A stretch of DNA of 5,020 nt, taken from assembly GCF_003334385.1 (NCBI RefSeq), contig NZ_QOWN01000083.1; one strand, 5' to 3'. A program made the translations under genes and the position numbers. This DNA comes from Escherichia coli. Lineage in GTDB: Bacteria > Pseudomonadota > Gammaproteobacteria > Enterobacterales > Enterobacteriaceae. Positions 1 to 430 of the stretch are shown in pieces (position 1 is the first letter of the stretch; the number at the start of each line of letters is the position of its first letter). The notes below the pieces were generated by a model. The model saw nothing but the letters and a program-made list of their open reading frames with translations. It had not been told where the DNA came from and did no database searches.

Positions 1-106
1 TCCAATAACGCGATCATAATCACGGCAATAACATATTTTTTATGACATTATCCGTCATGTATGACATAACAACTATCTGGTAGTTATAAGCTGCTTCTCC
101 TGGTTG

Positions 107-135
107 GGGAGTCGAAAAACTCTCCCTTTCTTAAT
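107..135 (+). terminator. Candidate weak rho-independent terminator for a plus-strand transcript entering from the left of the window
   Basis: gggag (107..111) pairs with ctccc (122..126) around a 10-nt loop and is followed on the plus strand by tttcttaatcttcctgtttt. The stem is short (5 bp plus a G-U), so confidence is low. Together with the minus-strand hairpin at 171..201 it suggests a convergent intergenic region. Confidence 0.2.
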
Positions 136-170
136 CTTCCTGTTTTACCCGCTTAATGCGTATTAACATA

Positions 171-201
171 AAGGAGATCGGGGTTATTGGGTGATCTCCT
201 T
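171..201 (-). terminator. Candidate rho-independent terminator for the autotransporter transcript: 9-bp perfect inverted repeat with a 13-nt loop, followed on the minus strand by a U-containing tail
   Basis: The arms aaggagatc (171..179) and gatctcctt (193..201) are exact reverse complements. On the minus strand the 3' arm is followed by TTTATGTTAATA. The hairpin lies ~230 nt downstream of the stop, the stem is only moderately GC-rich and the loop is long, so this is a weak call. Confidence 0.3.
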
Positions 202-430
202 CCATGAAAATACGCACTTAACCAGCCTAATATTCACAGGTCGCTTTTTGGGTAGACACCACGTCGTCGGATGCTTCAGTTATAACCATATGGCCCTCAC
301 TGTACACTTACGAAGCAGGCACAGAGTTGCGACCTTACTTTTTGGTGGAACACTGAGTAACTCACAATCTTCTGTGCCTGTCTTTATTTACAGGGAGCCG
401 TCAGGCCATAATCCCCTTCAGTAACAACCG

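Follow-up and report, generated by a model that had tools for sequence, protein, structure and literature searches.

Positions 1-430 of the window, the stretch of 5,020 nt of Escherichia coli DNA that was analysed, are very likely a non-coding mosaic in the cargo region of a P-EibA-type prophage that was built by recombination and transposition. The mosaic occupies the spacer between a rightward dinI-like gene and the leftward SPATE gene eaaA, and it would consist of four pieces. The first piece would be the stop codon, the 3' tail, and the rho-independent terminator of the dinI-like gene. The second piece would be a non-autonomous transposon (MITE) of 60 bp that arose by internal deletion from an ISEc12-like element of the IS21 family, kept just the outermost repeat of each IS end, and inserted at CTTAA with duplication of those 5 bp. 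The third piece would be about 70 bp from the left end of an IS66-family element with its body deleted, and the fourth piece would be about 120 bp that travels only with eaaA. The features are listed below with their coordinates and strands.

1-8, plus strand: last two codons and TAA stop (6-8) of the dinI-like gene; the coding sequence in two ompW-site prophages (loci L002 and L003) ends ...CFIQ* at window 8.
9-156, plus strand: 3' tail of the dinI-like gene, with 92.9% identity to prophage P-EibC (match over window 3-156).
42-67, unstranded: ATGAC / GTCAT / ATGAC cluster, in which TATGACAT occurs twice, 19 nt apart.
106-135, plus strand: intrinsic-terminator-like hairpin GGGGAGT / ACTCTCC with a 6-nt loop and a T-rich tail, from the terminator scan.
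152-156, unstranded: left copy of the target-site duplication CTTAA, of which P-EibC has a single copy.
157-216, unstranded: 60-bp MITE that joins the two ends of an ISEc12-like element of the IS21 family, with TG...CA tips; it includes the hairpin at 171-201.
217-221, unstranded: right copy of the target-site duplication CTTAA, likewise single in P-EibC.
222-250, plus strand: dinI-downstream sequence that resumes after the MITE, with about 84% identity to P-EibC (window 220-250 against segment positions 487-517); it ends CTTTTTG.
240-314, minus strand: left-end relic of an IS66-family element (homology over about 240-311) that comprises the terminal repeat and the greater part of the leader preceding tnpA; the tip GTAAGTG lies at 311.
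312-430, minus strand: eaaA-specific 3' flank that is found only beside eaaA-type genes.
431-4456, minus strand: eaaA-type SPATE (S6 peptidase) autotransporter gene, identified by its long ORF and its match to P-EibA.

The window comes from a P-EibA-type lambdoid prophage of E. coli and represents its eaaA end. Positions 1-430 share 99.8% identity with the record of prophage P-EibA of E. coli ECOR-9 (AF151091), and the whole window shares 98.9% identity with P-EibA. The gene series in AF151091 consists of eaaA, orf-60A, orf-156A, eibA (an immunoglobulin-binding trimeric autotransporter gene), tail-fibre genes, lom, and J, and its gene order is that of the window (eaaA, orf-156A, eibA, and tail-fibre genes). 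The eaa-eib region of P-EibA and P-EibC in E. coli ECOR-9 (AF151091 and AF151674) was reportedly described by Sandt and Hill in 2000. In the P-EibA record, the hairpin that matches window 171-201 is already marked as a stem_loop. The two deposited records carry only this kind of stem-loop annotation and are devoid of annotation for a MITE, an IS66 relic, or dinI. EaaA and EaaC are prophage-borne SPATEs of ECOR-9 that are linked to eib genes, and their expression was never tested (PMC3153244). No exact copy of the window was found among the complete E. coli genomes and records that were searched, and the best match has 99.5% identity (strain UCPROB-002). The eaaA ORF called mechanically in the window encodes 1,341 aa, equal to the annotation in UCPROB-002, and the gene is annotated as 1,335 aa (4,008 nt) in P-EibA and in strain SW070917; the difference concerns window 4439-4456. 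The eaaA gene of SW070917 has an additional 18-nt length difference inside the gene.

Strain SW070917 has a copy with 100% identity over window 1-430 in a prophage that is inserted at the 3' end of potB, and homology to K-12 (potB) stops about 510 bp left of window 1. Strains STEC1590, STEC2018-553, and UCPROB-002 have the same cassette in a prophage at ompW, and in these copies the ompW fragment stops about 300 bp to the left of window 1. The prophage-chromosome junction therefore lies 300-510 bp left of window 1, and none lies inside 1-430. Because positions 1-430 are common to prophages at two chromosomal sites (potB and ompW) with 97.7-100% identity, they are phage-borne and hold neither an att site nor an island edge. 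A megablast search of E. coli genomes recovered the whole region in only 46 genomes, and about 500 genomes have just window 176-225. Positions 1-430 lie in the cargo region of a P-EibA-type prophage, the equivalent of the b region of lambda.

The potB and ompW versions of the prophage begin to be homologous exactly at window 1 (SW070917, locus L001 position 8001; ompW-site prophage, locus L002 position 6001). The start of the window is thus a mosaic breakpoint; the left side in SW070917 holds a YkgJ-family cysteine-cluster gene (L001 7676-7978), and the part of the dinI-like gene that is common to both versions consists of only the last two codons and the stop (window 1-8). P-EibC has an intact dinI-like gene, the ompW-site prophages have one that lacks its N-terminal part, and SW070917 has the YkgJ-family gene in its place. 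Window 3-111 also matches, at 72.5%, the 3' end of a plasmid DinI-family gene and the sequence that follows it. In P-EibC (reverse complement of locus L012), the sequence TACTGTACATAACCACAGTT, which lies about 40-60 nt before the ATG of the intact dinI-like gene and within positions 45-73 of the 761-nt P-EibC segment, resembles by eye a LexA (SOS) box.

The MITE was identified from the comparison of a filled and an empty site. The filled site in the window reads ...ACCCG-CTTAA-[60 bp]-CTTAA-CCAGC, and the empty site in P-EibC reads ...ACCCG-CTTAA-CCAGC (...ACCCGCTTAACCAGC...); both the target duplication and the empty site were observed directly. The sequence of the MITE is TGCGTATTAACATAAAGGAGATC-GGGGTTATTGGGT-GATCTCCTTCCATGAAAATACGCA, and the element is non-coding, with no ORF wholly inside its 60 bp. 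Its terminal inverted repeats are 85% complementary at 157-169/204-216 and 100% complementary at 171-179/193-201. The hairpin at 153-219 (core 171-201) has a folding energy of -31.1 kcal/mol (z = -9.1), and none of 200 shuffled sequences folded as well. Judged from its sequence, the hairpin that had been marked at 171-201 is the paired inner part of the terminal repeats of the MITE, and the MITE thereby explains the stem-loop annotated in 2000. A synthetic empty-site query against E. coli genomes returned no unoccupied P-EibA-type site, and all four full-coverage matches listed (from 47 genomes) were split into two pieces around a 65-bp insertion. The site is filled in all 47 genomes that have the P-EibA-type flank, so nothing points to recent movement here.

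A further copy of the MITE, with 98.3% identity, is found in P-EibC (L012 7326-7385), 1 nt past the stop codon of eaaC; it is inverted relative to the window copy and has no target duplication. The homology between the eaaA and eaaC flanks breaks directly after TGA-C. A CTGAC/GTCAG inverted pair around the P-EibC copy was considered as an inversion scar and was judged to be within chance.

ISEc12 is an IS21-family element with the genes istA and istB that shares the tips TGCGTATT...AATACGCA with the MITE. The copy of ISEc12 (2,581 bp) in ypfH has the tips TGCGTATTACCGTGAAGGAGATCGG... and ...GATCTCCTTTCATGAAAATACGCA (this other end is given longer as ...GTGATCTCCTTTCATGAAAATACGCA), and it makes the 5-bp duplication CAAGG. 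ISEc12 exhibits the same end asymmetry and the same 5-bp length of target duplication as the MITE, and it differs from the MITE in having 2,581 bp with istA and istB, whereas the MITE has 60 bp and neither gene. The match to the ISEc12 ends was observed directly: partial matches to one arm of the 60-bp query fall at the ends of full-length ISEc12, the right arm of the MITE matches the istA-side end at 28 of 30 positions, and the left arm matches the other (istB-side) end at 23 of 30 positions, which shows that the asymmetry of the IS ends has been retained. A 62-bp variant (L015) consists of exactly the first 30 nt and the last 32 nt of ISEc12, with the junction read by eye. The window variant is only about 87% identical to this ISEc12-exact variant, so it may in fact descend from a related member of the IS21 family that has not been sampled. 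IstA/IstB of ISEc12 presumably mobilised the MITE.

The distribution of the MITE was assessed from BLAST counts and ten inspected sites. The 60-nt query matches 3,267 of 5,426 E. coli genomes, and 2,268 of the 5,426 genomes (about 40%) have a match over at least 80% of the query, at a median of 3 and a maximum of 16 places per genome. The istA gene of ISEc12 is present in 1,586 genomes. The E. coli genomes and a metagenome pattern scan yielded ten distinct insertion contexts, five of which have perfect duplications of 5-6 bp (CTTAA, CCTGG, AACGT, GCATA, and GTATAC) and one more of which has a duplication that agrees at 4 of 5 positions; a perfect 5-bp duplication is expected by chance at 1 in 1,024 per site. 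The remaining four of the ten copies, including the copy that abuts the eaaC stop in P-EibC, have no recognisable duplication. One metagenome copy (among loci L025-L104) joins the left flank of the AACGT site (L016) to the right flank of the Ag43-island site (L017), which points to recombination between dispersed copies of the MITE and suggests that such recombination erases duplications.

In the contexts that were examined, copies were seen only in accessory DNA, namely prophages and CP4-44-like and PAI-type islands. An exact-pattern scan of species-representative genomes, which diverged copies would escape, returned only two MAG contigs, both with E. coli island DNA. The two contigs (L020, CAAGJU010000030.1, and L021, JAIJJM010000656.1) are binned as Lachnospiraceae and Collinsella, and the immediate flanks of their MITEs match L017 and L018, two E. 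coli island loci; the contigs are probably binning contamination. The MITE family may be restricted to E. coli, as far as these sequence searches reach. In about 500 E. coli genomes, CP4-44-like islands also contain a solo end of the ISEc12 type (L005/L006 2481-2540), at least 60 nt long, about 166 nt past Ag43/Cah genes; it includes the second internal repeat and is a truncated IS end, not a MITE. The match of window 176-225 to the Ag43-DUF932 spacer and the plasmid matches of window 237-324 were considered together as a plasmid leading-region ssDNA promoter, and this candidate was resolved to ISEc12-type and IS66-family ends.

Bacterial MITEs derived from insertion sequences include the Correia element, RUP, ERIC/IRU, and E622. 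The element described here resembles them in its small size (57-70 bp), its lack of coding sequence, and its terminal inverted repeats, which match an autonomous IS; it likewise would form a strong hairpin when transcribed, is present in many copies per genome, and makes target duplications of the same length as its parent IS. It differs from other MITEs in its IS21-family parent (ISEc12), in being unusually short, and in retaining, from each multi-repeat end of the IS21 type, just the outermost repeat. No description of an IS21- or ISEc12-derived MITE in E. coli was found in the literature searched, and no annotation of the MITE was present in any record inspected. The MITE family is the only mildly new item in this work and is undescribed as far as we found.

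The IS66 relic was identified from the matches of window positions of about 240-311 to 689 plasmids with 78-80% identity. In intact elements, 24 nt separate the match from the first gene of the tnpA-tnpB-tnpC unit (IS66 family) that follows it. The alignment ends at ...CTTACGAA / ...GTACACTTACGAA, which is a GTAAG-type IS66 tip (minus strand, window 311), and everything inward of about 240 is deleted so that the relic is fused there to the dinI-downstream sequence. The relic shares the terminal repeat, the leader, and the GTAAG-type tip with IS66-family elements of Klebsiella, Salmonella, and E. coli plasmids. Those elements have tnpA/tnpB/tnpC, a second end, and an 8-bp duplication, whereas the window retains about 70 bp with neither transposase genes nor a second end. 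Because only about 70 bp of one IS66 end is left, it is a relic and not an element.

Window 312-430 is present in 52 genomes with 96.6-100% identity and always adjoins a SPATE gene, and no plasmid match covering 312-430 was found among the matches listed. The inverted repeat that had been described as 9 bp at 317-325/371-379 is indeed present and extends to 10 bp at 316-325/371-380, where it forms the perfect base of a long, imperfect hairpin at 316-380 (-29.6 kcal/mol, z = -5.3) that has no U tract. This minus-strand hairpin lies about 50 nt past the eaaA stop, adjoins the IS66 tip, and does not belong to a repeat family. It might terminate or stabilise eaaA transcripts, or it might be one more relic.

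The terminator scan of 1-430 made a single call, at 106-125 on the plus strand, and thus bears out the plus-strand hairpin that had been placed at 107-135. The hairpin meets the scan criteria with 7 pairs, of which 4 are G-C, a 6-nt loop, and the tail CTTTCTTAAT, and its folding energy by itself is unremarkable (z = -0.8). The stem in P-EibC reads GGGGAGT/ACTCCCC, in which a G-C pair replaces the G.U pair of the window, so the pairing is kept. The hairpin lies about 100 nt past the dinI-like stop codon and resembles rho-independent terminators in its G+C-rich 7-bp stem, 6-nt loop, and T-rich tail, unlike the hairpins at 157-216/171-201 and 316-380, which have long loops and no U tracts. It is probably the terminator of the upstream dinI-like (or YkgJ-family) gene. 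A weak minus-strand call was made over the eaaA stop codon, at 446-428. The minus-strand hairpin at 171-201 is present with perfect 9-bp arms, and it was not called a terminator because its loop is 13 nt and its tail (UAUGUUAAU) lacks a proper T run.

Every element that the sequence-only reading had listed was found, at its coordinates or at most 1-2 nt away. The flank is AT-rich as described, with a GC content of 0.43 in 1-430 and 0.56 in the gene (431-4456), and the drop arises because intergenic mosaic DNA adjoins a GC-rich SPATE gene. The flank was also rightly described as holding no convincing ORF. The sole ORF of at least 30 aa wholly inside 1-430 lies at 191-424 on the plus strand (77 aa, GTG start); it has no NCBIfam family match and runs across half of the MITE and the IS relic, and it was rejected as a gene. 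Window 9-430 is free of RefSeq features in the 20 genomes that match best and in the three inspected with annotation. The permissive Rfam scan of 1-700 returned only a eukaryotic snoRNA model by chance (15 bits against a gathering score of 40, E = 8.2), the tRNA/tmRNA scan returned none, and the promoter scan returned no promoter-like site.

Four other explanations of the hairpins and repeats were weighed against the prophage mosaic. The most substantial, which we regard as unlikely but still deserving some weight, is that the hairpins are functional convergent terminators, or one bidirectional terminator, that insulate eaaA from the dinI-like gene within a long regulatory 3' UTR. The call at 106-125, the high stability of the 157-216 hairpin on both strands (-31.1 and -24.0 kcal/mol), the stem_loop marked downstream of both eaaA and eaaC by the depositors of P-EibA and P-EibC, and the position of the P-EibC element 1 nt past the eaaC stop codon are consistent with it. 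However, the 157-216 hairpin, with its 13-nt loop and no U tract, failed the scan, the window element lies 215 nt from the eaaA stop in an orientation opposite to that of the P-EibC copy, and the target duplication and multi-copy spread indicate that it came by transposition. What had been read as a pair of convergent, terminator-like hairpins is, on one side, probably an ordinary terminator of the dinI-like gene at 106-125 and, on the other, the terminal inverted repeats of a miniature transposon and not an evolved terminator of eaaA. Any terminator activity of 157-216 would be a by-product, since the hairpin may incidentally stop or stabilise transcripts that arrive from either side, and the terminator explanation would be compatible with the prophage mosaic. 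It is improbable that the 57-70-bp MITEs are an undescribed and maybe still mobile IS21-type family that spreads through E. coli prophages and islands and whose hairpin has been recruited as a terminator or stabiliser at the 3' end of virulence-associated cargo. This proposal draws on the position of the MITE directly after eaaC and 215 nt after eaaA, and on the related ISEc12-like solo end downstream of Ag43. The 60-bp element could also be a hairpin module that spread by homologous recombination with its neighbouring genes, beside a coincidental CTTAA repeat. The several copies that have no duplications, and the chimeric-flank metagenome copy which shows that copies recombine, would fit such a module, but five independent sites have perfect duplications of 5-6 bp, a clean empty site exists, and the two arms differ in the way that the ends of ISEc12 do, an IS whose own target duplications are 5 bp long; the module is thus very improbable.

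It is extremely improbable that the region encodes a small regulatory RNA or that the ATGAC repeats are an operator bound by a protein, although three ATGAC cores are indeed present within 26 bp in direct and inverted order, at 42-46 (plus), 54-58 (minus), and 61-65 (plus), and stable hairpins accompany them. The strong hairpins are accounted for by the MITE, and the Rfam scan asked for by the sequence-only reading returned no RNA family beyond the chance match (E = 8), with no promoter-like site. ATGAC occurs 17 times across the window against 11.9 +/- 3.4 expected from shuffled sequences, which is not significant, and by our estimate the local cluster of three is only mildly unusual. The cores are mutated in relatives of 93-98% identity: the middle core reads GTCAC in the 98%-identical ompW copies (L002 and L003), and the cluster reads ATGACTT...GTCCCGC in P-EibC and ATGACAT...GTCCCGC in strain EC2 (L023). 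In another eaa copy, the cores have been cut away by IS1. Because the cluster is unconserved in close relatives, it is probably chance or a decaying repeat. The suggestion of a small RNA or regulatory locus is therefore not upheld. The least probable explanation is that the region holds a prophage or island boundary in the form of an att site or an integration scar. The drop in GC, the nearby prophage end, and the fragments of mobile elements speak for a boundary, but the potB homology and the ompW fragment end about 510 bp and about 300 bp left of window 1, all of 1-430 is carried with 97.7-100% identity by prophages at two sites and is phage-borne, and no tRNA is present. The idea of an island edge holds in so far as the DNA is horizontally acquired and lies at the cargo end of a prophage near its junction; matching 1-430 to genomes placed the junctions outside it, and no boundary, att site, or prophage end lies within. 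Likewise, two of the repeats taken as signs of an edge or of regulation are remains of mobile elements, and the idea of regulatory repeats found no support.

Mobile DNA accumulates in the spacer, as far as the sequences compared here indicate, with the MITE and the IS66 relic in the window and IS1 and an IS3-family element elsewhere. A different prophage remnant of SW070917 (L022, 2933892-2939010) holds a further eaa copy, in which IS1 lies at the equivalent of window 69/70 (about 2243-2259) and the dinI end and the ATGAC cluster are missing. Strain EC2 (L023, 1175-2433) carries an IS3-family element at window 244-247, with a 4-bp overlap, inside the IS66 relic.

The significance of the finding as written is very little. 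A suspicious AT-rich flank that bears hairpins turns out to be an ordinary prophage mosaic with repeats left behind by transposons, and the caution gained is that such hairpins are easily over-read as terminators, small RNAs, or att sites. The MITE could be used as a marker for recombination among eib/eaa prophages and CP4-44-like islands, and it is a candidate substrate for examining how few end repeats an IS21-type transposase needs.
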